Of a stretch of DNA of 64,000 nt, positions 5,439 to 56,738 are shown in pieces. Below the pieces are notes generated by a model, which ran no database searches, was not told the DNA's origin, and saw only the letters and a list, made by a program, of their open reading frames with translations. Origin of the DNA: a virus; IMG/VR virus record IMGVR_UViG_3300037067_022550, one strand, 5' to 3'. Numbering within the stretch: position 1 is the first letter of the stretch; each line of letters opens with the position of its first letter. The position numbers and the translations under genes are program-made.

Positions 5439-5639
5439 TTATAAAGTGTTTTTTTCTTTTTCGTCTTGTCTACCGTATTTGTATCCCAACCGATAAGCAT
5501 CATAAATCGCGTCATGCAAAATTTTTCTTAATCCATTTGAATTATAAGGCAATGAAGATGTGTTTGTATGCCTATTTGCTTTATTCATATAAACTTCTTC
5601 AATTTCTTCAATTGTTTCAATTTTTTTAGAATTTTTCAT
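5439..5639 (-). CDS. hypothetical protein
   Basis: Small ORF. Confidence 0.4.
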   Translation of the reverse strand: MKNSKKIETIEEIEEVYMNKANRHTNTSSLPYNSNGLRKILHDAIYDAYRLGYKYGRQDEKEKNTL

Positions 5640-5848: not shown

Positions 5849-5911
5849 TTGTGTTTCCTTATTGATTTAATGACAATATAGCATGTTCATATAAAAAGTC
5901 AACAAGAAAAA

Positions 5912-5993
5912 TGGTGCTCCTGACAGGAATCGAACCTGCATTTTCATTTCCATTATGCACTATCTGTTTAGGAAACAGTGCCAATACAGGAGC
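5912..5993 (-). tRNA. tRNA-like gene, atypical fold (possibly tRNA-Leu(UAA)-like or degenerate)
   Basis: Reverse complement gives a perfect 7-bp acceptor stem (GCTCCTG/CAGGAGC), discriminator A, encoded CCA, and a canonical T arm GCAGG-TTCGATT-CCTGT. The 45-nt middle does not fold into a standard D arm. The best hairpin is TGTTT-CCTAAAC-AGATA extended by GCAC/GTGC, loop triplet TAA. Confidence 0.5.
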
Positions 5994-6618: not shown

Positions 6619-6695
6619 TGGCGTCCCCGGCAGGATTCGAACCTGCGACCCTGGGATTAGAAATCCCATGCTCTATCCAGCTGAGCTACGGGGAC
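6619..6695 (-). tRNA. tRNA-Arg (anticodon TCT), CCA encoded
   Basis: RC = GTCCCCG TA GCTC AGCTGGATA GAGC A TGGGA TTTCTAA TCCCA GGGTC GCAGG TTCGAAT CCTGC CGGGGAC G CCA. Perfect cloverleaf, anticodon loop TT-TCT-AA. Confidence 0.9.
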
Positions 6696-9890: not shown

Positions 9891-10382
9891 TTACCCCATA
9901 AAAGATTCAATCCTACTACTTCTTTGTTCCTTTACAAAATATAAAGCCCATTTTTTGAAGTCAGGATCTTTTAATTCTTCAGCCACACCATTAATAACCA
10001 ACCAGAGTAAATCATCACTAACAAACTGAAGAGCCAAATGCTTTAATATCAATTGGACTTCTTTGCTATAAGTTTTTATTTTTACATAATTATCAGGAGG
10101 AGGAATGTTTTTTCTGTCAGTATTCAAACCACAGCAACATCCTTCACCTATATATAAATCTGCTTTATATTTAGCACCAAGTTCTCCAGCAATCTGGCAA
10201 ACCTTACACCAATACCTATTTTTGCCTTCATCCCAAACCAATGCAGGACAAACATCCGCTTTGCCATAAATTTTTACTGATAATAGACACTGAGCTTTTT
10301 TACAGCAAAATCCGCAACCGACGCAAGGTTTGGGAGCAACATCTGAATTTATTACGCTTTTCATAAAACCAATGTAACACAT
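9891..10382 (-). CDS. cysteine-rich hypothetical protein (possible metal/Fe-S binding)
   Basis: CVGCGFCC...C...CPAL...C..C...GCCCG cysteine clusters. Confidence 0.5.
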   Translation of the reverse strand: MCYIGFMKSVINSDVAPKPCVGCGFCCKKAQCLLSVKIYGKADVCPALVWDEGKNRYWCKVCQIAGELGAKYKADLYIGEGCCCGLNTDRKNIPPPDNYVKIKTYSKEVQLILKHLALQFVSDDLLWLVINGVAEELKDPDFKKWALYFVKEQRSSRIESFMG

Positions 10383-10394
10383 ATAAATTAAATG

Positions 10395-10649
10395 TCAAGT
10401 AGTAAATTTCTCAATAAAAACAGGAGATCCTTCTCCTCTCCAAGATCCAATTTGGTTGTAATCCCAAAATTCTTCTGCTTCATCTCTGCTCATATCTTTC
10501 ATTAATATATCTATAACCTTTTCTCTATCATAGGCTACTACAGGATTACTTCCATATCTATAACACATACCAATAATTGCATCATCAAAACCATCCATTA
10601 ATAATGCTTCATCATTGTATTCTGCCACTGCTTTTTTAAAGTTCTTCAT
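10395..10649 (-). CDS. hypothetical protein
   Basis: 84-aa ORF. Confidence 0.45.
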   Translation of the reverse strand: MKNFKKAVAEYNDEALLMDGFDDAIIGMCYRYGSNPVVAYDREKVIDILMKDMSRDEAEEFWDYNQIGSWRGEGSPVFIEKFTT

Positions 10650-13277: not shown

Positions 13278-13349
13278 AATTAATCCCCCTTAAACATGCA
13301 ATTCAGTGTCAGTAATATATCACACATAAATGAAATGTCAAGAATATTG

Positions 13350-14543
13350 TTAACCATCATCCAGAGCCCTGTCCACCCTTCCATGTATATCACACTCAAT
13401 TTTATAACATTCAGGTAAAACATTTCCATCAGGACGAACCCTTTTATGAATGTTTTCCCAGAGTTTGTCATATTGCTTCTTAAATAAATTAATTAACAAA
13501 GACATGTTTTCTTTATGATTTTTTTGGCACTCAATAGCAAATTCCTTAATTCCTATCCCCCCAGTATAATCATTGGAACAATTGTTTAATATTTGCTCAT
13601 GTTCTATTTCAACCTGATCATATAAGATGTTATGCATACGGTTTATTACCCCACTCATCTTATCTGTAAATTTCCTGAACTCCTCCGGAACTTGTTGCAA
13701 ATACATTGGTGGTATCTTTTTATCTTTAATGTCCCAAGCTTCCCAAAATGCCAAAGGAGTTAAATTAGAAATTATCTTGTGTATACGAAGATATTCATCT
13801 CCCTTGACCTTTACCTTTAAACCAGTAGCAGGAAAAGTAACAACAAATCCCTCCTTTTGAAAAGGTAATGTCTTGCAGTAAACAGACAACTCATCCAAAG
13901 ATTGAAAAGAATTAGATGCCGCACATTGTACACCCAATTCTTTTGAACATTTATTTAAACCATCCGGACCAAGCTCGCTTCCATCTTTATTGTTAATTAC
14001 CCCAGTTAAAACTAACTCTTTCATCTCCCCATAATCAACTACTATTTTGTTTTCAGGATAAATAATCTCAAATAAATAAGTTAAATTGTTGTCTATTTTA
14101 AGATCATTATTTTGTCCTTTAATGCGTTCTTGTATCCAATCAGTAGCCCAAAGAGCTTGTTCAGATGTAAAAGATCCCTTAGTAGATATACGATATTTAC
14201 CACCATACTTAAATAAAATTCCCATAGAACCATCTAATTTATCTAATACATAAAATAAATTATCATTCAGTGTGGAAATAATATTGGTATATCCAGGTAA
14301 AGAATATAAGTCAATCAACTCATTTAAATTGAAAAACTTCTTCCAAGGACGAGCCACTAGTTCACCAGTAACTTTATTAAAAATAATACCGCGGGCATTC
14401 AGTGTAACATTATCCCAAGCTCTATCATATACACATTCTTGCTTATAATGAAATAATACAAGATCATTCCATTCCACAGCCTTAACATATCTATGAGAAT
14501 AAAATTCAGATATGAAAGGAAGATTGGAAAAATTTTGGTTCAT
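13350..14543 (-). CDS. rnlA: RNA ligase 1 (T4 RnlA-like)
   Basis: RGIIFNKV...KFFNLNE, motif I DKLDGSMG, STKGSFTSEQALWA and EGFVV match T4 Rnl1 blocks (RGIMF..KFFNLNE, KEDGSL, KSKGSIKSEQALMA) recalled from memory. Confidence 0.8.
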   Translation of the reverse strand: MNQNFSNLPFISEFYSHRYVKAVEWNDLVLFHYKQECVYDRAWDNVTLNARGIIFNKVTGELVARPWKKFFNLNELIDLYSLPGYTNIISTLNDNLFYVLDKLDGSMGILFKYGGKYRISTKGSFTSEQALWATDWIQERIKGQNNDLKIDNNLTYLFEIIYPENKIVVDYGEMKELVLTGVINNKDGSELGPDGLNKCSKELGVQCAASNSFQSLDELSVYCKTLPFQKEGFVVTFPATGLKVKVKGDEYLRIHKIISNLTPLAFWEAWDIKDKKIPPMYLQQVPEEFRKFTDKMSGVINRMHNILYDQVEIEHEQILNNCSNDYTGGIGIKEFAIECQKNHKENMSLLINLFKKQYDKLWENIHKRVRPDGNVLPECYKIECDIHGRVDRALDDG

Positions 14544-15521: not shown

Positions 15522-16042
15522 TTCTCCCAACTACAAACATTCTTTTCTTTTACATACCTGGTAACTCTTTGCTTTACTATGCCCATCCTCTTGCGATGCT
15601 GAGTTACAGTAGCTTTATTAGGAACCCCAAGCATAAAAGCTACTTCCTTGTCAGTCTTTGTCCAATCAGCCTTGCCCCATTCATATTTACCACCTTTCCT
15701 GCCATCAATAAATATATAAGGTTTTTTATATTGATCAAGAATATTCCTAATATAAACCTTGGAACATCCCATTTTAACAGCAATTTCATCAAGATCCATA
15801 CTCTCAGTATTTAATTCCAATATTTTACTTAAAGTCAAGAAATTTCTTTTATGAAAATAAGGACTAGGATCTTTACCCAATTCCTTCCTCTTTTGATTAA
15901 CTCTTTGTTTGCTACATCCTAATTTCTTGGCAATAACTATATCCTGATCTAACCAATTAACTTCTTCCCAATTATGTCTTGCTTTCATAGTCTTTTCTCC
16001 TTTTTTTTGAAAGAAGAATAACATAAAAAAAATAAATGTCAA
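15503..16042 (-). CDS. putative DNA-binding protein (two HTH-like repeats)
   Basis: Repeated ...GCSKQRVNQ... / ...GCSKVYIRN... helix-turn-helix-like segments. Likely true start at internal Met (MKARHNW). Confidence 0.5.
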   Translation of the reverse strand: MTFIFFMLFFFQKKGEKTMKARHNWEEVNWLDQDIVIAKKLGCSKQRVNQKRKELGKDPSPYFHKRNFLTLSKILELNTESMDLDEIAVKMGCSKVYIRNILDQYKKPYIFIDGRKGGKYEWGKADWTKTDKEVAFMLGVPNKATVTQHRKRMGIVKQRVTRYVKEKNVCSWENKRVNV

Positions 16043-16050
16043 TAATAATA

Positions 16051-17553
16051 TTATCTATAAAATATAAAACGATATGTCAATGAATTAGTAGCATCCATAT
16101 AAAAAACTTCACGAGAAAGAGTAATACCATCTGTATCCCAACTCTTTAGACTCATAGCCACCTCACCTGCAGATTCTCCTGTCATAAATTGCCAATTGTT
16201 TGTGCTCCAGGTATTGTCCAAAATATAAATTCCATCCTTGTATGCTAGGATCTGATTTTGAGAAGTATCTGGATCAGTTGCCCCTGGCGTAAAAATACGA
16301 ACAGAATTAGGCGTAAAACCAACCCCAGTAACTACTAAATCATTAGTTTGATCAGAATCATTTGTTATAGTAATTAATTTTAAATAACTTCCTCCAAACC
16401 ACGCATTGCTATTTACAGGGTTAAACCATAAGGAGTCCCCATTTGAAACCGGATCATTCGTAATTGTATATATTTTACCACTAAAAGCAATAACCTGATT
16501 CGTAGCTCCTCCACTTCCACTTGTATTATAATCATTAACTGTTCCACCAGGATTAATTGTTAATGTACTACGGTTATACCAACCCCCATAAGTATTAAAT
16601 GTTCCATTGCTGTTTACCACTATATTCCCTCTAACTAAACCACCATAGTTGATAACTGTACCATCTATAGTAAGCGTATTGCCAGGAGCTACTACCCTTG
16701 AACCTGCCCTAAATTGAACTTCAGCATTAGTACCACAATAAATTGATGGTGTTTCAGTGGGAGATTCAAAAATTAAAGAAGGATATATACCAGCCATATA
16801 AGGTAAATTTGTATTATATGAACAAGAATAACTAGTTCCACCAGCTCCTAATGTAAACCCAATAGATACAACCCCACAATTAATAGCAGAAAAATCACCC
16901 CCAACTATAGCAGCTCTACCACTAAAATCTGCAGCAGCTACACAAGTTAAATAAATTCCAAGATAAAAATCACAATCTATAAAATAAGGTACAAAAGTCG
17001 TCATAGTAGAATTGCCTGTAATAACAACAGGTCCATAAACCATAAATCCCTTCATACTAAAAACATACAGATTGCTATTGTTGGTTGTACTTTGCAAAGC
17101 ATTGCCAGAAGGAGGATATAATAAAGATAGACCTTCTGATTTAATTGCCAAATATACAAGATTTGTATTCTCTAAAATTAAATTTTCATAATAAAACCCC
17201 CCCATAACATCAATGACATACTCTCTTTGATTTTCCCACGAATTATCACCATTTGCTATAACTTTATTAATGGCACCCATAATAGTCTTATAGGGATATG
17301 TTATAGAACCATTTTCATTATAACTATTAGTCCTATTTGAATCTACATATATTATGGTTGTAGTATTGGTTAACTCAATAGGCCAATTAGTCCTCATCTC
17401 ATTACCAATTGTAACATTCCCCCCTAAAGTAGTATTACTAGCAACAACTAAATCATTGGAAATAGTAATCTTTTCCTTCTCTACTCTTTCTGCCAATAAA
17501 TTGCTAACTAATAATAACCCAAATAATAATAAGATGTATTTAAAACTTTTCAT
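16051..17553 (-). CDS. secreted G/T/N-rich beta-helix-like protein (tail fiber/adhesin or depolymerase-like)
   Basis: Signal-peptide-like N-terminus MKSFKYILLLFGLLLVSNLLA. Repetitive GxxN/T-rich segments typical of beta-helix. Confidence 0.5.
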   Translation of the reverse strand: MKSFKYILLLFGLLLVSNLLAERVEKEKITISNDLVVASNTTLGGNVTIGNEMRTNWPIELTNTTTIIYVDSNRTNSYNENGSITYPYKTIMGAINKVIANGDNSWENQREYVIDVMGGFYYENLILENTNLVYLAIKSEGLSLLYPPSGNALQSTTNNSNLYVFSMKGFMVYGPVVITGNSTMTTFVPYFIDCDFYLGIYLTCVAAADFSGRAAIVGGDFSAINCGVVSIGFTLGAGGTSYSCSYNTNLPYMAGIYPSLIFESPTETPSIYCGTNAEVQFRAGSRVVAPGNTLTIDGTVINYGGLVRGNIVVNSNGTFNTYGGWYNRSTLTINPGGTVNDYNTSGSGGATNQVIAFSGKIYTITNDPVSNGDSLWFNPVNSNAWFGGSYLKLITITNDSDQTNDLVVTGVGFTPNSVRIFTPGATDPDTSQNQILAYKDGIYILDNTWSTNNWQFMTGESAGEVAMSLKSWDTDGITLSREVFYMDATNSLTYRFIFYR

Positions 17554-20003: not shown

Positions 20004-20723
20004 ATGAGTTTAATTAGGTTAAATGATTATAAAATAAGTGGTAGGCAAGACAAATATCAAGGGAAAGACTTTGTTGGAAAGCTTGAAGTTTCCAGAGAAT
20101 TACCTGATATAACTAAGGATATTTTTAGAAAGGCTCATTTTGGAATATCAGAAAGATCTTATGATGATCAAGCCATAACCTGTTTAGATGGAGAGGACAG
20201 ATTTTTAGATATAGATGGCATTAATTATTTTAGTGGAGAAAACTTTAAGATAGAATGCAAGGATTTTTCCAGGTTTGGTGCTCATGAAATGATAGGTGTT
20301 CCTAGGCGTTACATACAAGAGAAGGCCATATTTTTTAATTATATCATTTTTATATTTAGATACAATATAAAGGTACTTCAATCTTTTGTTAATTTTCATA
20401 AGTATAGGAATATAGATGATGCCATTCAAGACTCTTTAGATAAGGGTTTTTTGTCTATGAAAGATGGGAAGATATCTTACACTCTTTGGGGTAACAGGCT
20501 TGACATTTTATTAAGGCCGGAGAATAGAATGATAGACAAAGAGGATCAAAAGAATTATGTTTGTTCTGATTTGGGTAGATATAAGGGAGAAAAGCAATAT
20601 CTTTTCAAGATTAATTCTATGCTTTTAATAGATGATTTAATAGAGCAAGAAAAGCATAAGGAACGTTGGCCTAATATTTGGGAAAAGTATTTAATTAATG
20701 ATTATAAACTACCCAACCACTAA
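20004..20723 (+). CDS. hypothetical protein
   Basis: 239-aa ORF. Stop codon lies inside repeat copy A. Confidence 0.55.
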   Translation: MSLIRLNDYKISGRQDKYQGKDFVGKLEVSRELPDITKDIFRKAHFGISERSYDDQAITCLDGEDRFLDIDGINYFSGENFKIECKDFSRFGAHEMIGVPRRYIQEKAIFFNYIIFIFRYNIKVLQSFVNFHKYRNIDDAIQDSLDKGFLSMKDGKISYTLWGNRLDILLRPENRMIDKEDQKNYVCSDLGRYKGEKQYLFKINSMLLIDDLIEQEKHKERWPNIWEKYLINDYKLPNH

Positions 20724-20760
20724 AGATGTCGTGGTTTTACGCTCCCGTAATAAAAAGGGA
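20709..20760. repeat. site-family copy A (intact): ctacccaacc-ACTAAAGATG-tcgtggttt + TTACG/CGTAA hairpin
   Basis: Left half identical over 20 nt to the flank of the tnpB 3' end (37595-37614). Right half matches the flank beyond the tnpB 5' end (38841-38873) and copy B. Confidence 0.7.
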
Positions 20761-21090
20761 TGTCATATTTATCCTTGTGCATCTTTTTTAGTCTTGTCCA
20801 ACGGTGTAAGTGTAACAAGTTCCTTGCTAATAAATTTTGGCATCCAGCACCTACCCTTGAACCAGTGCGTCTCTGTTTCCTTGCAAAAGCTGGAAAACTC
20901 AAACCACCAATTCATATGGCTACGAGCTTGGTTTTCCGTCAACCCGGAGTCGATCAGACTTGCAATTGTGTCACTGACCGCCTTATCACAACAGTACCGT
21001 TTTGTTTTATTTTTTCTCATGTATATGCTTCCGTGCTTGTAAATTTTAGTTACATATTATTTGGAAGTGGCTTACTATTAGGTTATCCCA
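20730..21090. other. GC-elevated island without credible ORF (candidate structured RNA or foreign DNA)
   Basis: About 42-45% GC vs about 28% surroundings. Only atypical overlapping ORFs on both strands. Confidence 0.3.
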
Positions 21091-21735
21091 TTAATTTGTG
21101 GTGCTTTCGGGCAAGAAGGTATTTCTTATGGAATTATCAGGCATATAATAGATATTATAATCACCTGCATCAAGATTAAAGATATTAGGATATTTTTTTC
21201 TTATTTTATTATACATACCGTTATCGCTATAATTAATGAGTTCTTTTATAGTGAATTGGCAGTTAATTTTATTTTGAAATTCAAGATATTTATCTATAAG
21301 GTCAAAAGTAGTATTTGCTGTAACCAAATGAGTTATCCTTATTTTTGTTAGGGCGGACAAATATTTCAGGTATTCCATATCTTCTTGGATTTTATCGCTT
21401 GAGAATACACATTTATTAATTTTATTCCAAAATGAATCTTTTTTCAATTTTTCTCTAGTGTGAACATCTACTATCATGTTTAAGAAATTAGTAATAGTAA
21501 GAAATTTTTCCCACCAAGTATTATAGGTATCGAATTTATATAAACTATCTCCTCCTCCGGAAACAGATACTTTACCCTTATTTTTATTATTAGACAGGAA
21601 CTGTGTCAATTTAACCCAATCTGTGGGCTGATTGACATTTTCTAGTTCGTGACCTTTCCAAATGCAGTACCAGCAATTTGCCCTGCATCCGAAATTAGTA
21701 ATTACTGAAATATTTGGGCTAGCTGTCCGCAGCAT
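21091..21735 (-). CDS. small radical SAM / 4Fe-4S activating-enzyme-like protein
   Basis: FGCRANCWYC (Cx3Cx2C) near N-terminus; 214 aa. Overlaps upstream rSAM gene by 34 nt. Confidence 0.6.
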   Translation of the reverse strand: MLRTASPNISVITNFGCRANCWYCIWKGHELENVNQPTDWVKLTQFLSNNKNKGKVSVSGGGDSLYKFDTYNTWWEKFLTITNFLNMIVDVHTREKLKKDSFWNKINKCVFSSDKIQEDMEYLKYLSALTKIRITHLVTANTTFDLIDKYLEFQNKINCQFTIKELINYSDNGMYNKIRKKYPNIFNLDAGDYNIYYMPDNSIRNTFLPESTTN

Positions 21736-22682
21736 AATCCTGCCTCCTCACATTTAGCAATGGCGTCTACTACTACTGGAATTCCTTCTTTTTTGAATTC
21801 CCTTTCCATAACCAACAAATCTTCATAGTTATTATAATTAGCAAAAGTTTCTAGATTATTGTCTTTACTATTTAAGGTTTGATTAAGGGGTATCAATTTA
21901 ACCGTGAATTTTTCTCCATTGAGCCCCATTTTTTTAAGTTTGTTAACGGAGACTTCTATGCCTTTCATAACTATAAAGTTAAGAGTAACAGTTCTGTTGG
22001 TTATTTTTGTTTTATTAATTTGTTTGATAATGTCTTCAATAAGCATAACTTCTGAATTTCCAAAAAGTCTTTGTCTTTCCATTTCGTCTGTTGAATTACA
22101 GCTTATTTGAAGGTGCAATCTGCCAGTATAAGTCTTTTCTTTTACTTCTATCACTTTATTCAGGACTTCTTCTGGAGTTATATTGCCCATAATTTTTTTA
22201 GGAAGAATGGTATTAAAGCAAGGAAGCCAATTAAAATGTTTACCAAGGTTGAAAGAAATCATAGGCAAATTGATCATAGCTCCAAGAACATTGTCTAAAT
22301 TATGAGATGGTTCTCCCATTCTTGCAAAGCCTATTTTTACTTTATCAGATTGTAAGACATATGGAGTATTGATGATTAGAAGTTCTATTTGTTCTTCTAT
22401 TTGTCTTTGGCTCAAATTTCCCTTAAATGGCAATTGAGCAACATCACAGAAAAGGCAATCATGAACACATCCTAATTGGGTAGAGACAGTTAGCAACCAT
22501 TTCTTTTCATAAGGGACAAGGTGTTTCCATATTACATGAGGATCTTGGGATTGTCTAACTTCTGCGTGCAGTTTGCCATCCACAGCTACGTCTCTCATTT
22601 CTGTACATTCTATCATATATCCGTCTACTTCTACTAAAAAGATTCTTCCGCTTGGCAAATAGCAAACATTTTTAATTTTCAT
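21702..22682 (-). CDS. RlmN/Cfr-family radical SAM RNA methyltransferase
   Basis: LLTVSTQLGCVHDCLFCDVAQ...NL...ARMGEPSHNLDNVLGAM parallels RlmN CVSSQVGCALECKFCSTAQ...MGMGEPLLNLNNVVPAM. Confidence 0.7.
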   Translation of the reverse strand: MKIKNVCYLPSGRIFLVEVDGYMIECTEMRDVAVDGKLHAEVRQSQDPHVIWKHLVPYEKKWLLTVSTQLGCVHDCLFCDVAQLPFKGNLSQRQIEEQIELLIINTPYVLQSDKVKIGFARMGEPSHNLDNVLGAMINLPMISFNLGKHFNWLPCFNTILPKKIMGNITPEEVLNKVIEVKEKTYTGRLHLQISCNSTDEMERQRLFGNSEVMLIEDIIKQINKTKITNRTVTLNFIVMKGIEVSVNKLKKMGLNGEKFTVKLIPLNQTLNSKDNNLETFANYNNYEDLLVMEREFKKEGIPVVVDAIAKCEEAGLCCGQLAQIFQ

Positions 22683-22770: not shown

Positions 22771-23235
22771 TTGCAAATACTGTATAATTTAGATATGTTT
22801 TCAGAAGAAAGGAATAATATGATAGACAAATTTGATTTAGATTACAGATTTTTGAGCAATTTTTGGTTGTCTCCTGTGGTATTTGAAGGAGAAGTTTATC
22901 CTTCTTCTGAACATGCATTCCAAGCTGCTAAAAGTTTAGATAAATCTGTAAGAGAACAAATCAAGGGATGTAGTACCCCAGGTAAAGCTAAAAGAATGGG
23001 GGCAAGGGTTGAGTTGCGTTCTGATTGGGAAACTATTAAAGATGATGTTATGCTTGACGTATTAAGAGATAAGTTTAAGGACAATGATTTAAGAGAAAGA
23101 CTAATTGCAACTGGAACTAAAGAGCTAATTGAAGGCAATACTTGGGGAGACAAGTATTGGGGGATGGTTGCTGGCGAAGGAAAAAATATGTTAGGAAAGC
23201 TATTAATGCAAGTTAGAAGTGAAATTAACTCTTAA
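22771..23235 (+). CDS. NADAR (YbiA/DUF1768) domain protein
   Basis: YRFLSNFW...SSEHAFQAAK...GNTWGDKYWG hallmark residues. Confidence 0.75.
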   Translation: MQILYNLDMFSEERNNMIDKFDLDYRFLSNFWLSPVVFEGEVYPSSEHAFQAAKSLDKSVREQIKGCSTPGKAKRMGARVELRSDWETIKDDVMLDVLRDKFKDNDLRERLIATGTKELIEGNTWGDKYWGMVAGEGKNMLGKLLMQVRSEINS

Positions 23236-31209: not shown

Positions 31210-32322
31210 TTAGCAAGCTTCCCGTAATATATTTAAGTATTCCAATACCTTTTCATAGCTCCAAGCATGAATGTAATTGTCGCCTTGCGTTACATTTTCT
31301 TTTGAAAAATCTGGATTTAAAATGGTTTTTAAATTGCTCCAATCAATATTTACAACTCTTTTTCTCCATCCGATTTTTATTGTTCCAAATTGAGTTATAA
31401 ATTTATACCAAGGAGAACATTCTATACATTCACAATATTCGTTTTTTACAGGCAAAACACTTTTAATTATGAAATCTGCTTTGTGGAATATTTCGTTGAA
31501 TTTCTCTAAAATTTCATGTTCGTTTTTTAATTTATAGCAATTCTTATGAAAATATTGACTTGTGTGAAACAATAGTTTATCTCCTTCTTCCATTGGATCA
31601 GCCAAAGAACATTTAACCCATCCATGTTCATTGGATGGCTGTTTTCTCATTATTTCATCTTTTTCCCAAGCAGGATCTGGCTTCAAATCAATATATTTTT
31701 TGTTTTGTAAACTATAATCTGCTAAAAGATAAAATGATTTAAAACTATAGGTTTTACCATCAACAACAATACCATCACAAATACTGTTTCTTTTTGCAGC
31801 ATTAACAAATACTGATCTTGGTTTTCCTATAAAATCTTGAGATGGTGTAAGTTTTTCATAATCATTTTTGCATATAATATCGTGACAATTTTTAATATTC
31901 CATCCAGACTTGCAAAAAGGACATAAAAATTTTGATTTTGGTAGCCAACATGGAGAATAACTAATTGTAGTTTGCCCCACTATTTTTGCGGAAATATTGT
32001 TTTGTATTTCTTTGATTGTTAATGCATTTTGTTCCATTTTTTCATCATAATCTTTAATATATTCCCATAATTTTGACATAGAAATTACGGCAGGAAGATC
32101 TGGTATTTTTTCTATAGGTATAAATGGTTCATTAAATTTCATCAAATTACCGCAAGTGTCTAAAACAAATCTACCCAAAACGCAATACTCAGACAAGCTT
32201 TCTCTACGGTCATATCCAGCTTTGTGACGCTCATCCATCAACATAACGAAACTATCCAAATCTTTAAGATTTGCCAGTATTCTATCAATATCATCGTACC
32301 AAACAGGATTAATAATTTTCAT
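31210..32322 (-). CDS. hypothetical protein
   Basis: 370-aa ORF with several CxxC pairs. Confidence 0.55.
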   Translation of the reverse strand: MKIINPVWYDDIDRILANLKDLDSFVMLMDERHKAGYDRRESLSEYCVLGRFVLDTCGNLMKFNEPFIPIEKIPDLPAVISMSKLWEYIKDYDEKMEQNALTIKEIQNNISAKIVGQTTISYSPCWLPKSKFLCPFCKSGWNIKNCHDIICKNDYEKLTPSQDFIGKPRSVFVNAAKRNSICDGIVVDGKTYSFKSFYLLADYSLQNKKYIDLKPDPAWEKDEIMRKQPSNEHGWVKCSLADPMEEGDKLLFHTSQYFHKNCYKLKNEHEILEKFNEIFHKADFIIKSVLPVKNEYCECIECSPWYKFITQFGTIKIGWRKRVVNIDWSNLKTILNPDFSKENVTQGDNYIHAWSYEKVLEYLNILREAC

Positions 32323-32398
32323 ATTTATACTCTGTAGTCAATAAAATCCTAACATTTTTAGTGGCTGGTTAATTTAGTAACTTTACCAATTGATTCAA

Positions 32399-32626
32399 CT
32401 ATAATTGTTTTTCCAAAAATTCTATGTAACAATCTTTGCAAATGGAGTCGCCAATGTTGTAACGATGCCCAAAATTATGAAAAAAATCAACAAAATTTTT
32501 GTCCATACCGTACGTAAGAGACTTTCTCCCCTTATTGTCTTCTACTTCGCTCTGCATAATGCTTGCTTTGCCTTTATAAACTTTGCAAACAACACATTTT
32601 TTCTTTGCTGAATTTTTCATAATCAT
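32399..32626 (-). CDS. zinc-ribbon protein
   Basis: CVVCKV...CKDC. Confidence 0.45.
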   Translation of the reverse strand: MIMKNSAKKKCVVCKVYKGKASIMQSEVEDNKGRKSLTYGMDKNFVDFFHNFGHRYNIGDSICKDCYIEFLEKQL

Positions 32627-32656
32627 CCTAGCATCTTTAGTAGCTGAATAGTTTAT

Positions 32657-33630: not shown

Positions 33631-34959
33631 ATGCAAATAATAAGAATATCTTCCAATTTAATGAATCCAATATTAATGACTAGTAAACTTTTTAGAGACA
33701 TTTTTAAAAAGCTTGGTACGAAGCAACCCTATAATGAAGAACTTTACAATTCTAAGATCCAGAAATTTTTGGATAAAAATAATTTTGTAATAAACACAAT
33801 TCGTGCTAATTGGCTATATATTCTATCCTTTAGTCCTTTTGCTTATCAATATATTTATCCAAAATACTTAAAAAAAGAAGAAGAAACAATTAATGAAACC
33901 AAAAAGCAAACAATTGCAGCTTATGTCTCTGGAAACATAAATATTATTTCAAGAGTTTATAATGACAAAGAGATCATGGAGTTGTTTGCTAATGATAAGC
34001 AAAAGACAACTGAATTATATAATGCATTTATTTATTCTATACATTTTCTTAAAAATATATTAAATAATTATTCTACTTATTGCCCTTCAGTGATTAAAAA
34101 TACAGAAAATTTATTAAAGTTCAAAGATATAGCAAGGGAAGAAGTAGTAAAAATGGTTAGTTTCTTTACTATTAATGTTCCTGATATTTCTAGTTTTGGT
34201 TCTGTTATTTCTACTTTTGAAAATTTACCTGAGGAACTTAAAACTCCAAAAGCTGAAAAGATTTTAATAGAAAGGATATGTTCTGCTCTTGAATCAGATC
34301 CTACCTATTATTCAAAAAAACTAATAGATGAAGATAAATTTAAGAAGTTTAGATTTTTGCCTCAAATAATTGAAGCTACAAAAGTTGGTTGGATAAAACT
34401 GCTTGAAAATCTTATGAGCAAACCAACGGATATAGGAGACAATGGTTCTACAATAATTACAATATTCCCTGGTTTTTTAGAATATACTTGTATTCCTCCA
34501 GAATTTAAAACAGACCCAAGGATTATGGCTATTAGAGAAAGGGTTAAAAAACAGATGGTGACTTTTCTTAATAATAATTTTAAAAATGTATTTAATACAA
34601 CTTTTGGTGATTCCGCAATTCTTACTCCACAACAAAAACAAGAATTAGAAATTTTAATAAATGAATTTAGAGATGAAGATTTTATGGTATCTCTTTATTG
34701 GAAAGAAAAAGAAAAATTAAAAGAATATCTTCCGCTAAAAGAAAAAATGAGTGGTAATGTAACAATTAAATTTATTCAAGATTATTCTGCTATAATTACT
34801 GGGCAGGACGGCCAAATAAAAGAACCTAAAAATTTTGCTGCCGGAGATATAGAGAGCGTTTATGTTCTTAAAGATATGATGAATTATATACGTGTTGAAC
34901 TTAAAGACGGTTCTATAATTGATTTATTAGACAAGAGTTCTTTTGAGATATTACCATGA
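33631..34959 (+). CDS. paralog-family protein 1 (DEDFMVS / IPPEFKT motifs)
   Basis: Shares LINEFRDEDFMVSLYWKEK and IPPEFKTD with the next gene. Confidence 0.6.
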   Translation: MQIIRISSNLMNPILMTSKLFRDIFKKLGTKQPYNEELYNSKIQKFLDKNNFVINTIRANWLYILSFSPFAYQYIYPKYLKKEEETINETKKQTIAAYVSGNINIISRVYNDKEIMELFANDKQKTTELYNAFIYSIHFLKNILNNYSTYCPSVIKNTENLLKFKDIAREEVVKMVSFFTINVPDISSFGSVISTFENLPEELKTPKAEKILIERICSALESDPTYYSKKLIDEDKFKKFRFLPQIIEATKVGWIKLLENLMSKPTDIGDNGSTIITIFPGFLEYTCIPPEFKTDPRIMAIRERVKKQMVTFLNNNFKNVFNTTFGDSAILTPQQKQELEILINEFRDEDFMVSLYWKEKEKLKEYLPLKEKMSGNVTIKFIQDYSAIITGQDGQIKEPKNFAAGDIESVYVLKDMMNYIRVELKDGSIIDLLDKSSFEILP

Positions 34960-35936
34960 AAATAATTAAAATAGCACAAATAAGCCAACAAGATGATGAA
35001 ATGTCCCTAAGAAATGTCTTTGAAGAAATAAAAGGGCAAGTTTCTCATTATAATGATGTATCTTTAAATAATGATTTTTATGTCAGTATTTTAAAATTAA
35101 GAGAAATATGTAAAAGAAGACCAGATTTAATTTTATTTCCAATAAAGAAATTATGGTTAGATTTAATAAGAGATAATAAGTCATATTTATACAAATTTAT
35201 AATCCCTGAAAGTCTTAAAAATGAGCAAGATATAAAGAATCTAGTAAGAAATGAAATTTTAGAAGAGTATGAAAATTATCTACAAACTGCCATAGAACTA
35301 ATGATTAGATATGATGAAACCGAAAAAATATTTATAGAAAATGATTTACATTTAACGGGGGCTTTTTCAGAATATATTATAAAATATCCGGAAAACTATA
35401 AAAAGCACAGACCAAAGGCTTTAACTGCCCATTATTTGGACAACACTTTTTTTTGGGAAGCTCTGTCTAATTTTACCAAAAAATTTAATTTATCTAATTA
35501 TCCAGATGCACTACTTGCACTACTGACTTATAAAACCATCCCACCAGAATTTAAAACAGAACATGTTATAAAACACATAGAAAAATTCTTGATAAGTCTG
35601 TTTTTAAGAGAGCCGTATCTTTATGAAAAAGAGTGTCCTCTTGATTTTAAAAAAAATGGAGAAATATTAAAAAGTAGAAAAACAGGTTGGATAAATCTTT
35701 TAGATCAAAAAAGCCCCCTTTTATATGGTAGTTTGCCAAAAGATTTAAAACAAGATGAAGACTTTTTTAGGTACAGAGAACCAGCTAAAAAGGCTTTAAT
35801 GGGGAAATTATTACATCCCAAAGAAGAAAAAGATCCTTCTATTCAAGTCTATGTTGATTTATTATTAGAAGAATTTAAGGACGAAGATTTTATGGTTTCT
35901 GCATTTTGGAAAAACAAACATAATGAAAATAATTAA
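34956..35936 (+). CDS. paralog-family protein 2
   Basis: MKIIKIAQ N-terminus, IPPEFKTE, EFKDEDFMVSAFWKNK; ATGA overlap with gene 1. Confidence 0.6.
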   Translation: MKIIKIAQISQQDDEMSLRNVFEEIKGQVSHYNDVSLNNDFYVSILKLREICKRRPDLILFPIKKLWLDLIRDNKSYLYKFIIPESLKNEQDIKNLVRNEILEEYENYLQTAIELMIRYDETEKIFIENDLHLTGAFSEYIIKYPENYKKHRPKALTAHYLDNTFFWEALSNFTKKFNLSNYPDALLALLTYKTIPPEFKTEHVIKHIEKFLISLFLREPYLYEKECPLDFKKNGEILKSRKTGWINLLDQKSPLLYGSLPKDLKQDEDFFRYREPAKKALMGKLLHPKEEKDPSIQVYVDLLLEEFKDEDFMVSAFWKNKHNENN

Positions 35937-36612
35937 AATTACACAAAAAAATAATTCTAATGATTGGATAAAGCAAGGATTTGTTGTTGCCAAAACTATA
36001 GAAGCAATAAATGAAATTTTCAAGCCATTTTTTAGTGGAACCGGCGTATCAAATATTCAAAGTTTTAGAATAATTGTAGATAAAATAAAACATATTCCAT
36101 TAGAAGAATTACAAAACAAAACAGTTCTTGGGGTATTAAAAGAATATTATTTAGAGGTAATTAAAAAATACACTTTAATATATCTAGATTATTTATTTTA
36201 TGACGAAATTTATCCTGAATCTCTCAAAAAAGATCCCTATATTTTAAAAGAAATTAAAAAAGTTGTTTTAAAATCTTATAATGAATATGCTTATAAGAGT
36301 TATGAACTCAACAATAAGATATTTAAAATGCTTAAACGTTTTAAAAATGATGATTTTATTATGAGTATTTTGTATAAAAAAATGTATAATAAAATGGGGC
36401 AAGAAAATAAAGATTTGATGAAAATAATTGAAGAAATAAAAATAGAAAAAGAAAGATCTAAAAAAATACACAGAATATTAGAGTTCTATTCTCTTACTCA
36501 CGAAAACCCTTCGGCCTATGAGATGGATATAATAACTAAAGATTTAGGGCAAAAGAATAATGGAGAAATAAATAACTACATAGATAAATATGTAGTTAAG
36601 TGGGGAAAATAA
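35923..36612 (+). CDS. paralog-family protein 3
   Basis: MKIIKITQ N-terminus, RFKNDDFIMSILYKK; 14-nt overlap with gene 2. Confidence 0.6.
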   Translation: MKIIKITQKNNSNDWIKQGFVVAKTIEAINEIFKPFFSGTGVSNIQSFRIIVDKIKHIPLEELQNKTVLGVLKEYYLEVIKKYTLIYLDYLFYDEIYPESLKKDPYILKEIKKVVLKSYNEYAYKSYELNNKIFKMLKRFKNDDFIMSILYKKMYNKMGQENKDLMKIIEEIKIEKERSKKIHRILEFYSLTHENPSAYEMDIITKDLGQKNNGEINNYIDKYVVKWGK

Positions 36613-36657
36613 AATATCCAATGACTAAAGATGTTGTGGTTTCCTTAACTACGGAAA
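36612..36657. repeat. site-family copy B: aaatatccaatg-ACTAAAGATG-ttgtggtttcc + TTTCC/GGAAA hairpin
   Basis: Right half aligns with copy D (ACTAAAGATGTYGKRGTTTCCTT..CTACGGA). Left half differs from A/C. Confidence 0.65.
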
Positions 36658-36867
36658 ATGAAAATTAAAAAAATAGCAGGAAAAATTATTAATAAAGATG
36701 ATGCCATTATGTATATTTTTAATGGTTGTAATGGTGAAGTTTTATTAAAGCTAATACCAGCAGAATATGAAGTCTTATTAAATAAATATAATGAAATAAT
36801 GATGGAAAGAAATAAACCCAAAGACTTGCCCGGACAATTAACTTTTTTTGATGATATTAAAACTTAA
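36658..36867 (+). CDS. hypothetical protein
   Basis: 69-aa ORF starting immediately after copy B. Confidence 0.45.
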   Translation: MKIKKIAGKIINKDDAIMYIFNGCNGEVLLKLIPAEYEVLLNKYNEIMMERNKPKDLPGQLTFFDDIKT

Positions 36868-37531: not shown

Positions 37532-37579
37532 TACTATGAATCTCCACTAATTTTATAATAAATATTTCAATAAAAATAA

Positions 37580-37760
37580 TTAAAAACCTGTCAACTACCC
37601 AACCACTAAAGATGGTTAGGCTTGCTCAACCAACGAACTGGGAGCAATAGGTGGATTGACTGCCGCCCGACTTGGATGGCCTGTAGCGTCCAAGTAGTTT
37701 TTAAGTATGTTGCGAGAAGCATTAAGATCAGCATGGATGCAAAGTCCACAGTGACCACAA
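37580..37760 (-). ncRNA. putative TnpB omega-RNA/reRNA region (3' end of tnpB through the right end)
   Basis: Inference from IS200/IS605 biology. GC-richer 3' segment of tnpB with hairpin CTTGGA/TCCAAG at 37671-37694. Confidence 0.3.
37595..37614. repeat. site-family half C: ctacccaacc-ACTAAAGATG abutting the tnpB stop codon
   Basis: 20/20 identity to 20709-20728. Confidence 0.7.
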
Positions 37761-38850
37761 ACATAGACAGATTGAGACTTGCGGTTGGACTTGAGAACTA
37801 CTCCGCACTTGCTACACTTTTGGGAAGTGTAACGAGCTGGAACATACTCAACCCCTATTCCCTTTGCTTTGGCTTTGTAGGAAAGAAACTGTTCAAACTG
37901 GAAGAAGTTCCATTTGTTCAAGTCCTTCCTTTGAGCCTTTCTCAATCTGGAGTTTCTGATTCCTGTGAGTTTCTCCAGTATGACCGTGCTTCCTGCTTCA
38001 AGCGAATTGACTATCTTCTTGGCAATGCAGTGGTTAACATCTCGTCTAAACCGTCTCTCTTTAGAACTTACTTTTCTAAAGTGTCTTTTGCCGGAATGTT
38101 TTTTCGCCTGAAGACTACTTCTGAGTTTTTCATACCTTTTGCTAACCTGCTTAATCCTCCTTCCGTTAAAGAACTTGTTTTCGGACGTTACTGCAAGATT
38201 GTTGATTCCCCTGTCTATTCCGACGTACTTGCTGGAATGAGGAATATCGTTTATTTCTTTCTCAAACACAACATGCAAAAAAACCTTGCCTTTCTTGACA
38301 AACAAATCAGCCGAAGCGTGTTTCCAGTCCAAATACCTTTCAAAGTATTTCGGAATAATAAGGTTGAACTTCTTTCTTCCTTCCGTAGTTTTGATGGAGA
38401 CGGTTCTGGACTCAAGGAAGAGAGTGTAAGAGTTGACATCATAACGAATAGATGTTTGCTTGGATTGCGGAAGAGAACCTTTCTTGCCTTTGTTCGTAAT
38501 TTCTTTAACAGATTTCAGGGTTTCAGTAGCCTTCATTCTAGCAGAAATAGCAAGTTGGGATGGTAGAGTAGTTCGGCAAGTGTTGTATGTTTTGTGATGG
38601 AGAGAGACACCGTTGGTATCTTTAGACTCAAATCCTACTTTACAGATGTAGTTGAAAGCATCCGTATAAGCTTTAATGGTTGGAAGAAACTCCTTGTCGG
38701 AGCAGTCAACAACCAGTTTTGCTGTTTGAGTCAGTTTCATATATTTAATTCATTCTGCAATTATTTTTCATTCCCTTCTTTTATTTTCAACTATTTTTCA
38801 ACAATGCAAACAGAAAGTGGAACGGCAATTCATCCCCGACACTAAAGATG
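37605..38850 (-). mobile_element. TnpB-only IS200/IS605-family (IS1341-like) element inserted into a site-family copy; ACTAAAGATG present at both junctions
   Basis: tnpB ORF plus about 100 nt of 5' leader, bounded by direct 10-mers at 37605-37614 and 38841-38850. No tnpA. Confidence 0.6.
37616..38740 (-). CDS. tnpB: TnpB (OrfB) RNA-guided nuclease, IS200/IS605 family
   Basis: RuvC-I GIDRGINN, RuvC-II ...ILEKLTGI, zinc finger CSKCG...CGHCG, RuvC-III IHADLNASRNI. Confidence 0.9.
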   Translation of the reverse strand: MKLTQTAKLVVDCSDKEFLPTIKAYTDAFNYICKVGFESKDTNGVSLHHKTYNTCRTTLPSQLAISARMKATETLKSVKEITNKGKKGSLPQSKQTSIRYDVNSYTLFLESRTVSIKTTEGRKKFNLIIPKYFERYLDWKHASADLFVKKGKVFLHVVFEKEINDIPHSSKYVGIDRGINNLAVTSENKFFNGRRIKQVSKRYEKLRSSLQAKKHSGKRHFRKVSSKERRFRRDVNHCIAKKIVNSLEAGSTVILEKLTGIRNSRLRKAQRKDLNKWNFFQFEQFLSYKAKAKGIGVEYVPARYTSQKCSKCGVVLKSNRKSQSVYVCGHCGLCIHADLNASRNILKNYLDATGHPSRAAVNPPIAPSSLVEQA

Positions 38851-38873
38851 TCGGAGTTTCCTTGCCTACGGAT
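38841..38873. repeat. site-family half D: ACTAAAGATG-tcggagtttccttgcctacgga
   Basis: Aligns with right halves of copies A and B. Confidence 0.65.
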
Positions 38874-38894
38874 ATATGAAATGCTAATGATTGC

Positions 38895-54867: not shown

Positions 54868-55008
54868 ATGAATATTATTTTTATTTTTATTGGTTTTTTT
54901 GTTGGCTATATAGGTGCTGATTTGTTCCCTAAAAGTTTTAAATGTTGGCAATGGTGGGCTTTTGTTATTGTTATAGGCTTGTTTTTTTATTTTTTTATTG
55001 ACATTTAA
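54868..55008 (+). CDS. 46-aa hydrophobic membrane micropeptide
   Basis: Manual ORF MNIIFIFIGFFVGYIGADLFPKSFKCWQWWAFVIVIGLFFYFFIDI. Confidence 0.3.
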   Translation: MNIIFIFIGFFVGYIGADLFPKSFKCWQWWAFVIVIGLFFYFFIDI

Positions 55009-55025
55009 TATTTTTATGCTATATT
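54998..55025 (+). promoter_or_regulatory. sigma70-like promoter (TTGACA-16nt-TATATT)
   Basis: Seen directly; followed by AAGGGGG RBS of 55050. Confidence 0.35.
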
Positions 55026-55049
55026 TCTTATAAACAAGGGGGATAAAAA

Positions 55050-55475: not shown

Positions 55476-56738
55476 ATGCAAGTAATTCAATCAAATAAAC
55501 CAAACAAAGTAATCTACTCTTGGTGCCCAAATATTGATCAAAATGCTCTTGACCAAGCCAAGCTACTTGTTGAACAACTCTTTGTTTTTAGGCACATGTC
55601 TCTTATGCCAGATACACATAAGGGGACAGTAATGCCAATTGGAGGGGTATTAGCCACTAAAGATGTTATTCTTCCTTTTTGCGTCGGTTCAGATGGAGGC
55701 TGTGGAATGTGTGCTGTAAAAACTTCTTTGAAGATTGAAGACTTCAGAGAAGGACAGAAGGAAGAACTTTTGCATAGTATGGAAAGAAGCGTTCCTGTAG
55801 GTTTTCAGCATAATGACGAAAAAAGAATGGGGGAAATAAGGCAAAAATATATTCAAAAAATTGAGTATTTGCTTAAAAAAAACGAAGCAGTGTTAAGAGC
55901 TTCAACACGAATATTTCAAAACGTGCCAAAAACTATTGAAGAACAGGTTGGAACCCTTGGTGGAGGCAACCATTTCTGTGAGATACAATATGATCAAGAT
56001 GAAAACATTTGGATAATGATTCACTCAGGATCTAGAAATATAGGAACTAAAATTTGCGATACTTTCAATGATATCGCAATTGATTTAAATAAGAAATATT
56101 ATTCTCAAGTTCCAGAATCAATCCCATTTCTTCCTACCAACACAATGGAAGCAAAAGAATATCTTGCTTATATGAATTTTGCGTTAGACTTTGCTTTTCT
56201 TAACAGGCAAATTATGATGGATTATATTAAAAAGGATATTTCTTTTTCATTCAAACATATGCAAGTTGATTTTGAAAAAATGATTAATATTCACCACAAT
56301 TATGCTTCTCTTGAAAACCATTTCGGAGAAAACGTATGGATTCATCGTAAGGGGGCAACACTAGCCACTAAAGGAACCATTGGGATCATACCTGGGGCAG
56401 CTGATAAAAATTCAGCTTCATATATAGTTCGGGGGAAGGGTAATCCTGACTCTTATAATTCTTGTTCTCATGGTGCTGGCAGAGTAATGGGTAGAAAAGC
56501 GTTTAACCAAATATATAATACTCCAGAAAAAATGAGGGAAATTGTATCTTCCCTAGACGGAATTACTCATAGCAAGTTTAAGAAAGAACAATCTTACAAG
56601 AAAAATAAAGAAACGGGATTGCTTGATGTTTCTGAAGCTGGTGCTGCATATAAAAATGTTTTCTCAGTTATGAAGAACCAGGAAGATTTAGTTGAAATTG
56701 TTACAACCCTTAAAACCTATATTAATATGAAGGGTTAA
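55476..56738 (+). CDS. rtcB: RtcB RNA ligase (3'-phosphate/5'-OH)
   Basis: MPDTHKGTVMPIGGVLATKDVILPFCVGSDGGCGM and downstream His-rich blocks typical of RtcB. Confidence 0.9.
   Translation: MQVIQSNKPNKVIYSWCPNIDQNALDQAKLLVEQLFVFRHMSLMPDTHKGTVMPIGGVLATKDVILPFCVGSDGGCGMCAVKTSLKIEDFREGQKEELLHSMERSVPVGFQHNDEKRMGEIRQKYIQKIEYLLKKNEAVLRASTRIFQNVPKTIEEQVGTLGGGNHFCEIQYDQDENIWIMIHSGSRNIGTKICDTFNDIAIDLNKKYYSQVPESIPFLPTNTMEAKEYLAYMNFALDFAFLNRQIMMDYIKKDISFSFKHMQVDFEKMINIHHNYASLENHFGENVWIHRKGATLATKGTIGIIPGAADKNSASYIVRGKGNPDSYNSCSHGAGRVMGRKAFNQIYNTPEKMREIVSSLDGITHSKFKKEQSYKKNKETGLLDVSEAGAAYKNVFSVMKNQEDLVEIVTTLKTYINMKG

Follow-up and report, generated by a model that had tools for sequence, protein, structure and literature searches.

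Hairpin repeats in a phage genome as the ends, and probably the collapsed remnants, of an IS200/IS605-family TnpB element

Members of the IS200/IS605 family, and in particular the IS605 group (IS608, ISDra2, ISGst1-5), encode a Y1 TnpA transposase together with TnpB, transpose by 'peel and paste', and carry subterminal hairpins on one strand at their left (LE) and right (RE) ends alike, with neither terminal inverted repeats nor target duplication. Insertion of the left end always takes place 3' of a defined tetra- or pentanucleotide (PMC5027513). For the ISGst elements of Geobacillus the transposon-adjacent motif (TAM) has been established experimentally as TTTAT (TnpB2) or TTCAT (IscB), and the transposon-encoded motif (TEM) as TTCAC (PMC10055086). 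Copies that carry only TnpB and are mobilised in trans have been described for the family (PMC10055086), and the guide of the TnpB omega RNA is taken from the DNA that flanks RE (Meers et al. 2023). Here we describe a family of short hairpin repeats in the virus record IMGVR_UViG_3300037067_022550, a 64-kb stretch of phage DNA that is referred to below as the window. An initial annotation, made from the sequence alone, had taken these repeats for a phage regulatory cassette or a docking site for mobile elements. It is very probable that they are the LE and RE subterminal hairpins of an IS200/IS605-family transposon together with its collapsed remnants.

Two further groups of short repeats are relevant for comparison. 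Palindrome-associated transposable elements (PATEs) are gene-less IS200/IS605 derivatives that keep their ends (PMC10055086). The repetitive extragenic palindromes (REP) and bacterial interspersed mosaic elements (BIME), with their REP-associated tyrosine transposases (RAYT or TnpA-REP), are linked to IS200-type HUH enzymes (PMC8266576).

The conserved hairpin and the TnpB element that it flanks

In what follows the plus strand is that of the window as given, so the tnpB-sense (top) strand of the element is the window minus strand; L-numbered stretches such as L112 and L108 are contigs that carry the motif, or sister and comparison contigs. The window contains six copies of the 10-mer ACTAAAGATG, counted over both strands, where 0.28 are expected, and none of 100 shuffles reaches six. 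The four copies first annotated, A to D, lie where they had been placed and share a genuine motif. The left part common to A and C is an exact match over 22 nt (AACTACCCAACCACTAAAGATG, 20707-20728 and 37593-37614), and the right-hand similarity of B and D, estimated earlier at about 30 nt, amounts to 27 of 32 nt right of the loop (repeat family D4).

The initial annotation had described a composite of the 10-mer, a tYgKRgTTT segment and a 5-bp hairpin. The shared sequence is real, but what is conserved at its core is the 9-nt loop of a hairpin with a covarying 7-bp stem; the loop reads ACTAAAGAT on the plus strand and ATCTTTAGT on the tnpB-sense strand. The bases that flank ACTAAAGAT in IMG/VR contexts vary jointly (ctacgac/gtcgtag, ccactac/gtagtgg, cccaacc/ggttggg), and because the stem bases change together the motif is a hairpin with an invariant 9-nt loop. 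In an alignment of 40 distinct LE and RE copies, 89.6% of the stem cells are paired, compared with 60% in shuffles and about 30% with slid partners; compensatory double changes fill 69 cells where 20.5 are expected, and the loop does not vary. Stem mismatches are asymmetric: 34 are A.C when read on the plus strand, which makes them G.T on the tnpB-sense strand, and 12 are the reverse. This indicates that the hairpin forms on the tnpB-sense strand, opposite the window plus strand. Perfect stems are found in 74 of 110 RE hairpins and in 12 of 25 LE hairpins.

The two ends can be told apart by what surrounds the stem. On its outer side the RE-type hairpin has (A/G)TGAACTAC; another small hairpin comes next, and after it the 3' end of an opposite-strand TnpB open reading frame (ORF) of about 390-420 aa. 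The LE-type hairpin has an inner side ...ATTCATC and an outer side TTTTCTTTGACGG, TTTTACGCTCC or TTTCCTTGCC, followed by TATAAA. The motif is a conserved hairpin that marks LE and RE of a widespread TnpB-carrying IS200/IS605-family transposon, and one such element in the window, flanked by copies C and D, has the following parts:

37590-38875, minus strand: complete, non-autonomous IS200/IS605-family element (1,286 bp; LE, tnpB and RE, no tnpA); the segment is missing from three sister-phage contigs
37616-38740, minus strand: tnpB (374 aa), predicted TnpB/Cas12f-type RNA-guided nuclease; stop codon within the RE hairpin stem
37598-37620, minus strand: copy C, RE subterminal hairpin; plus-strand CCCAACC-ACTAAAGAT-GGTTAGG, with a G.T wobble on the tnpB-sense strand
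37590-37597, minus strand: RE terminus, top strand GTAGTTGAC, a variant of the family consensus GTAGTTCAC; TEM TTGAC, which is plus-strand GTCAA at 37590-37594
37570-37589, minus strand: DNA directly 3' of RE on the top strand, AGGTTTTTAATTATTTTTAT; putative omega-RNA guide sequence by the family rule
38824-38866, minus strand: copy D, LE subterminal hairpin; inner stem CCCCGAC/GTCGGAG around loop ACTAAAGAT at 38834-38856, outer stem GGCAA/TTGCC
38876-38880, minus strand: TAM, TTCAT on the top strand and ATGAA on the plus strand, outside the element and directly 5' of LE

The predicted TnpB matches the Pfam families OrfB_IS605 (5e-14) and Cas12f1-like_TNB (5e-22), and its matches to TnpB/Cas12f chains in the PDB align the catalytic and zinc motifs GIDxG, CxxC...CxxC and ADxNAxRNI; identity to any TnpB compared is merely 23-37%. 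Copy C scores 38.8 bits with the covariance model, of whose training set it was itself a part, and copy D scores 45.7 bits, with a DNA fold of -9.6 kcal/mol (z=-2.5) and an architecture that matches 24 other LE hairpins. Both fold on the minus (tnpB-sense) strand as DNA, and C also does so as RNA. The last 240 nt of the element fold into the terminal hairpin and an adjacent one (z=-2.1). The RE hairpin falls in the final 30 nt of the element and would therefore have to be the 3'-terminal stem-loop of the putative omega RNA. By the family rule, the guide of the 374-aa TnpB is predicted to be AGGTTTTTAATTATTT.

In relatives, the RE hairpin encodes the C-terminal tail of TnpB on the opposite strand (for example ...ETQRSLVVG* in L108), and the reading frame crosses the whole hairpin, as in the L108 RE, to stop in GGGTAGTTCA. 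Owing to a C-to-T change in the stem of the window copy (37614-37620), the frame meets a TAA stop sooner and the stem has a G.T wobble; the window TnpB is shorter by eight residues and the sense-strand hairpin survives.

In everything tested save the missing tnpA, the window element fits the IS200/IS605 family. Like the described elements, it carries subterminal hairpins on one strand at either end and shows neither terminal inverted repeats nor a duplicated target; its tnpB reads toward RE, as theirs does; tnpA stands next to LE in the autonomous relatives; and the TAM (TTTAT/TTCAT) and TEM (TTCAC-like) of ISGst are identical to the motifs of the window family. Each end folds on the tnpB-sense strand into the 7-bp stem around loop ATCTTTAGT, and by analogy with these elements a Y1 (HUH) TnpA would bind the single-stranded hairpins. 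The enzyme would cut just 3' of the LE-adjacent pentanucleotide (TAM TTCAT or TTTAT) and just 3' of the RE-terminal one (TEM TTCAC, TTGAC or TTTAT), after which the top strand would move as a circle to a new TAM site without target duplication, and the omega RNA would take its guide from the DNA flanking RE. Copy C is the RE, and copy D the LE, of a single intact TnpB-only element, which would rely on TnpA supplied in trans.

The same hairpin is found well beyond this phage. Exact-pattern scans of IMG/VR recovered ACTAAAGATGTNGNNGTTT in at least 120 stretches and the 20-mer CTACCCAACCACTAAAGATG in 54, and the motif is present in more than 170 viral stretches. At one genome per species, a scan of prokaryotes recovered the RE signature from at least 120 stretches of bacteria and archaea, and 57 of the 119 that were scored have at least six of seven stem pairs; the carriers are Saccharibacteria, Bacteroidota, Firmicutes, cyanobacteria, Proteobacteria and methanogenic archaea. 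An RE-type hairpin is followed, in dozens of viral contigs, by an opposite-strand TnpB ORF of about 390-420 aa with 23-29% identity to the window TnpB. As the loop is invariant beside TnpBs this divergent, it must be under strong constraint, and since it is common to LE and RE, recognition by TnpA is the likely cause. In L112 an LE hairpin with the ACTAAAGAT loop stands about 25 nt from the end of a Y1 TnpA (Pfam Y1_Tnp 7e-34), and likewise in L076; TnpA is also present in L076, L150, L159, L141 and L154, all with the RE hairpin, and the gene order in L150, L159 and L141 is RE hairpin, TnpB, TnpA, LE. The TnpA ORF of L112 (2941-3345) is intact only under genetic code 25, in which TGA stands for glycine; this suggests that L112 is a phage of Gracilibacteria/Absconditabacteria carrying the same element family. 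A full-text literature search with the loop sequence returned unrelated primer matches only, and in a limited literature search no description of its strict conservation across phages, bacteria and archaea was found, which does not in itself prove novelty.

The TnpB element of Lactobacillus phage iLp1308 (annotated 'transposase', GenBank KR905070) has the same end architecture, with an RE of CTCGGTA-CTTTAG-TGCCGAG followed by TAGTTGAC and the same hairpin upstream of its tnpB. It differs in its stem sequence, in a loop variant (ACTTTAGT in place of ATCTTTAGT) and in its TnpB, which has 37% identity over 62% of the query. The TnpB of Geobacillus virus E3 was considered as an ISGst-like reference and set aside, as its hairpin is IS608-like (CCCCTGAC-TTTA-GTCATGGGG) and does not have this loop.

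Insertion boundaries and empty sites in sister phages

Within 2-9 nt after each of the 36 distinct LE ends comes ATAAA (32 ends) or ATGAA (4 ends), whereas 8% of random windows contain either; on the top strand these LE-adjacent motifs are TTTAT and TTCAT. The sequence of the RE ends is GTAGTTCAC/T, and conservation sets in precisely at GTGAACTAC in 11 or more independent Bacteroides/Prevotella insertions. This TAM/TEM rule gave a span of 37590-38875 for the full element and of 36609-36657 for copy B before any sister contigs were known. Sister-phage contigs, with flanks 82-98% identical to the window, were found only through protein searches with neighbouring genes; three of them provide empty sites for both the full element and B, and three others an empty site for A. 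Searches for methyltransferase relatives in IMG/VR found none, and GenBank phages contain no megablast match to either region. L296, the lone IMG/VR match to the predicted empty-site 20-mer, has no homology with the window and was discarded as a chance match.

In the three sister contigs BLAST homology ends at window position 38875 and restarts at 37589. Their target is uninterrupted, with ...GCATCTTAT joined directly to AGGATTTTT... (also read as ...TTAGCATCTTAT joined to AGGATTTTTAC...), and both ACTAAAGATG and the hairpin are absent. At the same site the window reads ...TTAGCATTTCAT, then the element from ATATCCGTAGG to GGGTAGTTGAC, then AGGTTTTTAAT.... The sisters carry CTTAT at the TAM position, followed directly by the RE-side flank. 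Cleavage inside the loops, as in Rep-type HUH enzymes, was rejected, as the empty sites put the boundaries outside the hairpins.

The remaining well-supported copies, A and B, are single units for which the following parts were delimited:

20704-20749, minus strand: copy A, 46-nt solo hybrid; RE outer half ATAAACTAC-CCCAACC, loop, LE outer half GTCGTGG-TTTTACGCTCC...
20750-20754, minus strand: TAM of copy A, TTTAT on the top strand, aligned with the TTCAT of the sister empty site
20755-21040, minus strand: GC-richer block with the orphan ORF 20769-21020 (83 aa), missing from the sisters together with A
36609-36657, minus strand: copy B, 49-nt solo hybrid; degenerate RE outer half, loop, D-type LE outer half
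36658-36662, minus strand: TAM of copy B, top-strand TTCAT, identical with the ATGAA start of ORF 36658 on the plus strand

Copy B lies between the stop of ORF 35923-36612 and the ATG of ORF 36658-36867, and exactly its 49 nt are lacking in the same three sisters. These read ...ATTTTCAT joined directly to TTTCCCCAG..., where the window has ...ATTTTCAT, the 49 nt ending in TTTAT, and TTTCCCCAC..., so that B stands exactly 3' of TTCAT. The empty sites of both the full element and B show no target duplication and no ACTAAAGATG, and each junction has a TTCAT/CTTAT pentamer on its 5' side. If B is removed, the upstream ORF ends TGG GGA AAA TGA, with an ATGA overlap with the next ATG, as elsewhere in the tandem array to which these genes belong. 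This array (33631-36867) consists of four co-oriented ORFs (442, 326, 229 and 69 aa) with similar 5' ends, ATGAAAATAATTAAAAT..., and with weak homology between the first two (22% identity, E about 4e-11); stop/start overlaps join the genes, and B interrupts the last junction.

At copy A, three further sisters lack window positions 20706-21040, a 335-nt block made up of A and the orphan 83-aa ORF. On the top strand they read AAAATTCAT joined to AGTCATT, which is a TTCAT site, and the window flank restarts right after the RE terminus of A. It is possible either that flanking DNA was captured in one step or that two independent events occurred at the same pentamer. One edge of the block is exactly at the A RE terminus. 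The orphan ORF (20769-21020, minus strand) has a GC content of about 40%, compared with 30%, and no homolog but itself among 5.8 billion proteins. The site in the sister contig L297 that matches A (5503-5560) carries a tandem duplication of the spacer, ACATAAAAGTGGCAACT / ACATATGAAAGTGGCAACTT, which is absent in the window.

The position of the copies at gene boundaries, with B abutting the ATG of ORF 36658, had been observed correctly. B is an insertion 3' of TTCAT, and the copies come to lie at gene boundaries because TTCAT is the reverse complement of ATGAA starts.

Three more sites in the window were considered for membership of the family:

32331-32374, plus strand: copy F, possible degenerate solo, low confidence; motif on the minus strand with loop ACTAAAAAT, adjoining the ATG of ORF 31210-32322
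32621-32656, plus strand: copy E, possible truncated relic, low confidence; RE-outer-like half and exact 10-mer on the minus strand (32632-32654)
55656-55665, plus strand: 10-mer within the RtcB coding sequence, lacking the flanking signature and placed outside the family

Copy F matches the RE outer half plus loop at 18 of 22 positions and the loop plus LE outer half at 23 of 32 (0.25-0.35 in shuffles), and scores just 11.3 bits (E=2.8) with the covariance model. Copy E, which like F adjoins an ATGAA start, that of ORF 32399-32626, has four mismatches in 22 to the RE outer half plus loop (0.35 in shuffles); the covariance model does not detect it and no hairpin forms on folding. A metagenome scan with the ORF beside E and F found a single relative at 39% identity and no sister locus for an empty-site comparison. 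With low confidence, E and F may be relics of the family. The copy at 55656 was rejected as a chance match. Spread of B, E and F by paralogous gene duplication was also rejected, because the proteins downstream of the three are unrelated.

Solo units and the explanations that compete for them

Copy A provides the last codons and the stop codon of ORF 20004-20723. Its stem halves are complementary at three of seven positions in register, and the covariance model gives it 20.7 bits (E=0.009) with four stem positions unpaired. The halves match the RE (CCCAACG) and LE (GTCGTGG-TTTTACGCTCC) of full elements such as L108, which is of the parent type, and A-like hybrids in L001 and L081 are 89-92% identical to it over 53 nt in unrelated flanks. 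Copy B scores 21.8 bits (E=0.0045) with about four of seven stem positions paired, and its RE outer half lacks the near-invariant GTAG. Fifteen distinct solo units are known from phage and bacterial contigs; they average 5.0 of seven stem pairs, none is perfect, and all keep the TEM-side end and the TAM. Deletion intermediates are also found, namely L030 and the two-hairpin forms of 300-400 nt in L005, L008 and L090. The simplest reading of these sequences is that A and B are collapse relics, in which everything between the two directly repeated loops would have been lost, by slippage or recombination, leaving RE-outer half, loop and LE-outer half. The bacterial contigs L208, L253 and L285 contain long perfect palindromes of the form GTGAACTAC-stem-ACTAAAGAT-stem-GTAGTTCAC, which have the RE outer sequence on both sides of the hairpin and are a different kind of solo unit.

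The two-hairpin intermediates resemble PATEs, which have both LE and RE palindromes and no ORF. A and B have a single hybrid hairpin with three to four of seven pairs and no omega-RNA scaffold, and are relics beyond that definition. Like REP/BIME sequences, the solos are short, dispersed, intergenic repeats of a single hairpin type. They differ in carrying IS605 LE and RE outer sequences with TAM and TEM and in having degraded, not conserved, hairpins; no RAYT or TnpA gene is present in the window, and only two to four degraded solo copies are. By analogy only, they recall the solo long terminal repeat (LTR), a relic left when directly repeated ends collapse and the interior is deleted, with the difference that the repeat here is a 9- to 23-nt hairpin instead of a long terminal repeat, and that a collapse mechanism is something we infer. 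No description of single-hairpin relics was found in the literature compared for the IS200/IS605 family; they are a minor variation and the sole mildly novel point of the finding.

Several other explanations of the family have to be weighed. The reading of a docking or attachment site holds that the site was there before the TnpB element, which split its ACTAAAGATG core into C and D and left A and B unoccupied. The initial annotation was right to tie the family to the element, which C and D flank with the 10-mer directly on both sides, and A does resemble the left part of C joined to the right part of D. The three sister empty sites, however, hold neither the 10-mer nor the hairpin, so that the pre-existing core expected of an integrase attachment site in an unoccupied target is missing, and B and the A block are themselves insertions absent from sisters. 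Moreover, the element boundaries lie 8-26 nt outside the loops and not within them, and it is the end stems of occupied elements that are fully complementary and the solos that are not, the opposite of what a split site predicts. The empty sites refute this reading, and a pre-existing substrate is extremely improbable. A regulatory cassette of the phage, such as a promoter, a terminator, an RNase-processing site or a translational operator at gene boundaries, would fit the intergenic or gene-end position of all copies, the start codons that B, E and F abut and the stop codon that A supplies, but this placement is accounted for by the TAM and the copies are not kept at the same loci in sister phages. 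Sequence prediction places no terminator-like site, with GC-rich stem and T run, at A or B; the terminator match at D corresponds to the LE hairpin and has a weak tail, and promoter-like matches stay at the level of shuffles. The solo copies have lost their stem pairing, and the same hairpin stands next to TnpB/TnpA across bacteria and archaea. The 5-bp hairpins described for A (TTACG/CGTAA) and B (TTTCC/GGAAA) contribute little in the folds and are absent at the matching positions of related copies, and are thus incidental. A regulatory origin is very unlikely, and the sister comparisons refute a conserved cassette; secondary exaptation, for example of the GGA in B as a weak ribosome-binding site, is possible.

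That the copies are remnants of a gene for a peptide like NYPTTKDVVV, as also proposed in the initial annotation, is the least credible of these explanations and can practically be dismissed. A short plus-strand open frame does run across the copies, and the opposite strand of the RE hairpin encodes the TnpB tail in relatives such as L108. Against this, the variation at the loop flanks consists of compensatory base pairs at the nucleotide level and not of conservative amino-acid changes, with the peptide differing accordingly; the LE copy, with the same loop, sits upstream of tnpB in non-coding DNA; and tblastn finds no fragment of TnpB or TnpA near A or B, including the GC-rich region beside A, which was rejected as a candidate fragment on that ground. 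A somewhat better case exists for solos that are mobile themselves: they would be mini-transposons of 46-49 nt with one hairpin, which TnpA would move in trans. Compared with the sisters, B is a clean insertion of 49 nt between TAM and TEM, hybrids of the A type that share its non-complementary stem halves at 89-92% identity occur in three unrelated contigs, and all 15 distinct solos of phages and bacteria keep the TEM-side end and the TAM. Set against these observations are the degraded stems (0 of 15 perfect; three of seven pairs in A, about four of seven in B), the missing RE-internal guide segment by which family members find the TEM, and the loss of GTAG from the RE-outer half of B. Recurrent loop-to-loop collapse of a common parent such as L108 fits the same data, and the intermediates L030, L005, L008 and L090 exist. 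It is unlikely, although not as unlikely as the other alternatives, that A, B and the 13 other units of 46-49 nt are the smallest mobilisable IS200/IS605 derivatives, with an LE-side guide and TEM, carrying 5'-flanking DNA along. If they were, such carriage would explain A and the orphan 83-aa gene as one 335-nt block that ends at the A RE terminus.

Some observations also weigh against the interpretation as transposon ends and their remnants. A tblastn search of the 64-kb window with the TnpA of a relative finds nothing (best E=1.0), and mobility of the resident element would need a TnpA helper in trans, none of which is seen in the window. Rfam finds no omega-RNA or other family at RE, at the gathering threshold or with permissive E-values, and the place of the RE hairpin as the omega-RNA 3'-terminal stem-loop is one that we infer. 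In some TnpA-bearing relatives the loop of the LE hairpin differs, so that the loop is not universal at LE. The 5' junction of the 335-nt block, TTTAC/AAGC, departs from the exact 5-mer TAM rule, and the block carries an unrelated orphan ORF. With these points included, the interpretation of the site family as subterminal hairpins of an IS200/IS605-family transposon and its collapsed remnants is still held with high confidence.

Other features of the window and meaning of the finding

A repeat of about 40 nt, TTGACATTT...TAT(G/A)(C/T)TAT, with sigma-70-like spacing is found upstream of genes in the window (families D2, D17, I1, I3, I6 and I19) and, judged from its sequence, looks like a family of conserved phage promoters. 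Its sites are:

696-747, minus sense: repeat of about 40 nt
5875-5910, minus sense: repeat of about 40 nt
10358-10407, minus sense: repeat of about 40 nt
13311-13351, minus sense: repeat of about 40 nt
16003-16074, minus sense: repeat of about 40 nt
54966-55039, plus sense: repeat of about 40 nt

The adjacent, overlapping ORFs 21091-21735 and 21702-22682 (minus strand) both have weak radical-SAM matches in Pfam and could be a split or frameshifted gene, or two genes. Of two minus-strand tRNA sites, 5915-5993 and 6619-6695, one is a tRNA-Arg(TCT) found by both tools; the second is a weak tRNA-like match of 32 bits, just above the gathering score, and is not called by ARAGORN. The window also encodes an RtcB RNA ligase (55476-56738, Pfam 5e-94) and a NADAR-domain protein (22771-23235, 1e-26).

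To summarize, the repeats are ordinary mobile DNA, neither a phage control site nor a landing pad. An apparent regulatory motif can be re-annotated as transposon ends, which provides exact boundaries, a TAM and a predicted guide for a compact 374-aa phage TnpB, and the window shows three insertions of the IS605 type that postdate the split of this phage from its sisters. In an AT-rich phage, targeting of TTCAT would put insertions just upstream of Met-Lys/Asn starts or at gene ends; in AT-rich phages such a TAM would direct insertions between the ribosome-binding site and the start codon, or to stop/start overlaps. Furthermore, a 9-nt loop that stays constant beside TnpBs of about 25% identity, across phages, bacteria and archaea, offers a cheap search key for the ends of these elements.

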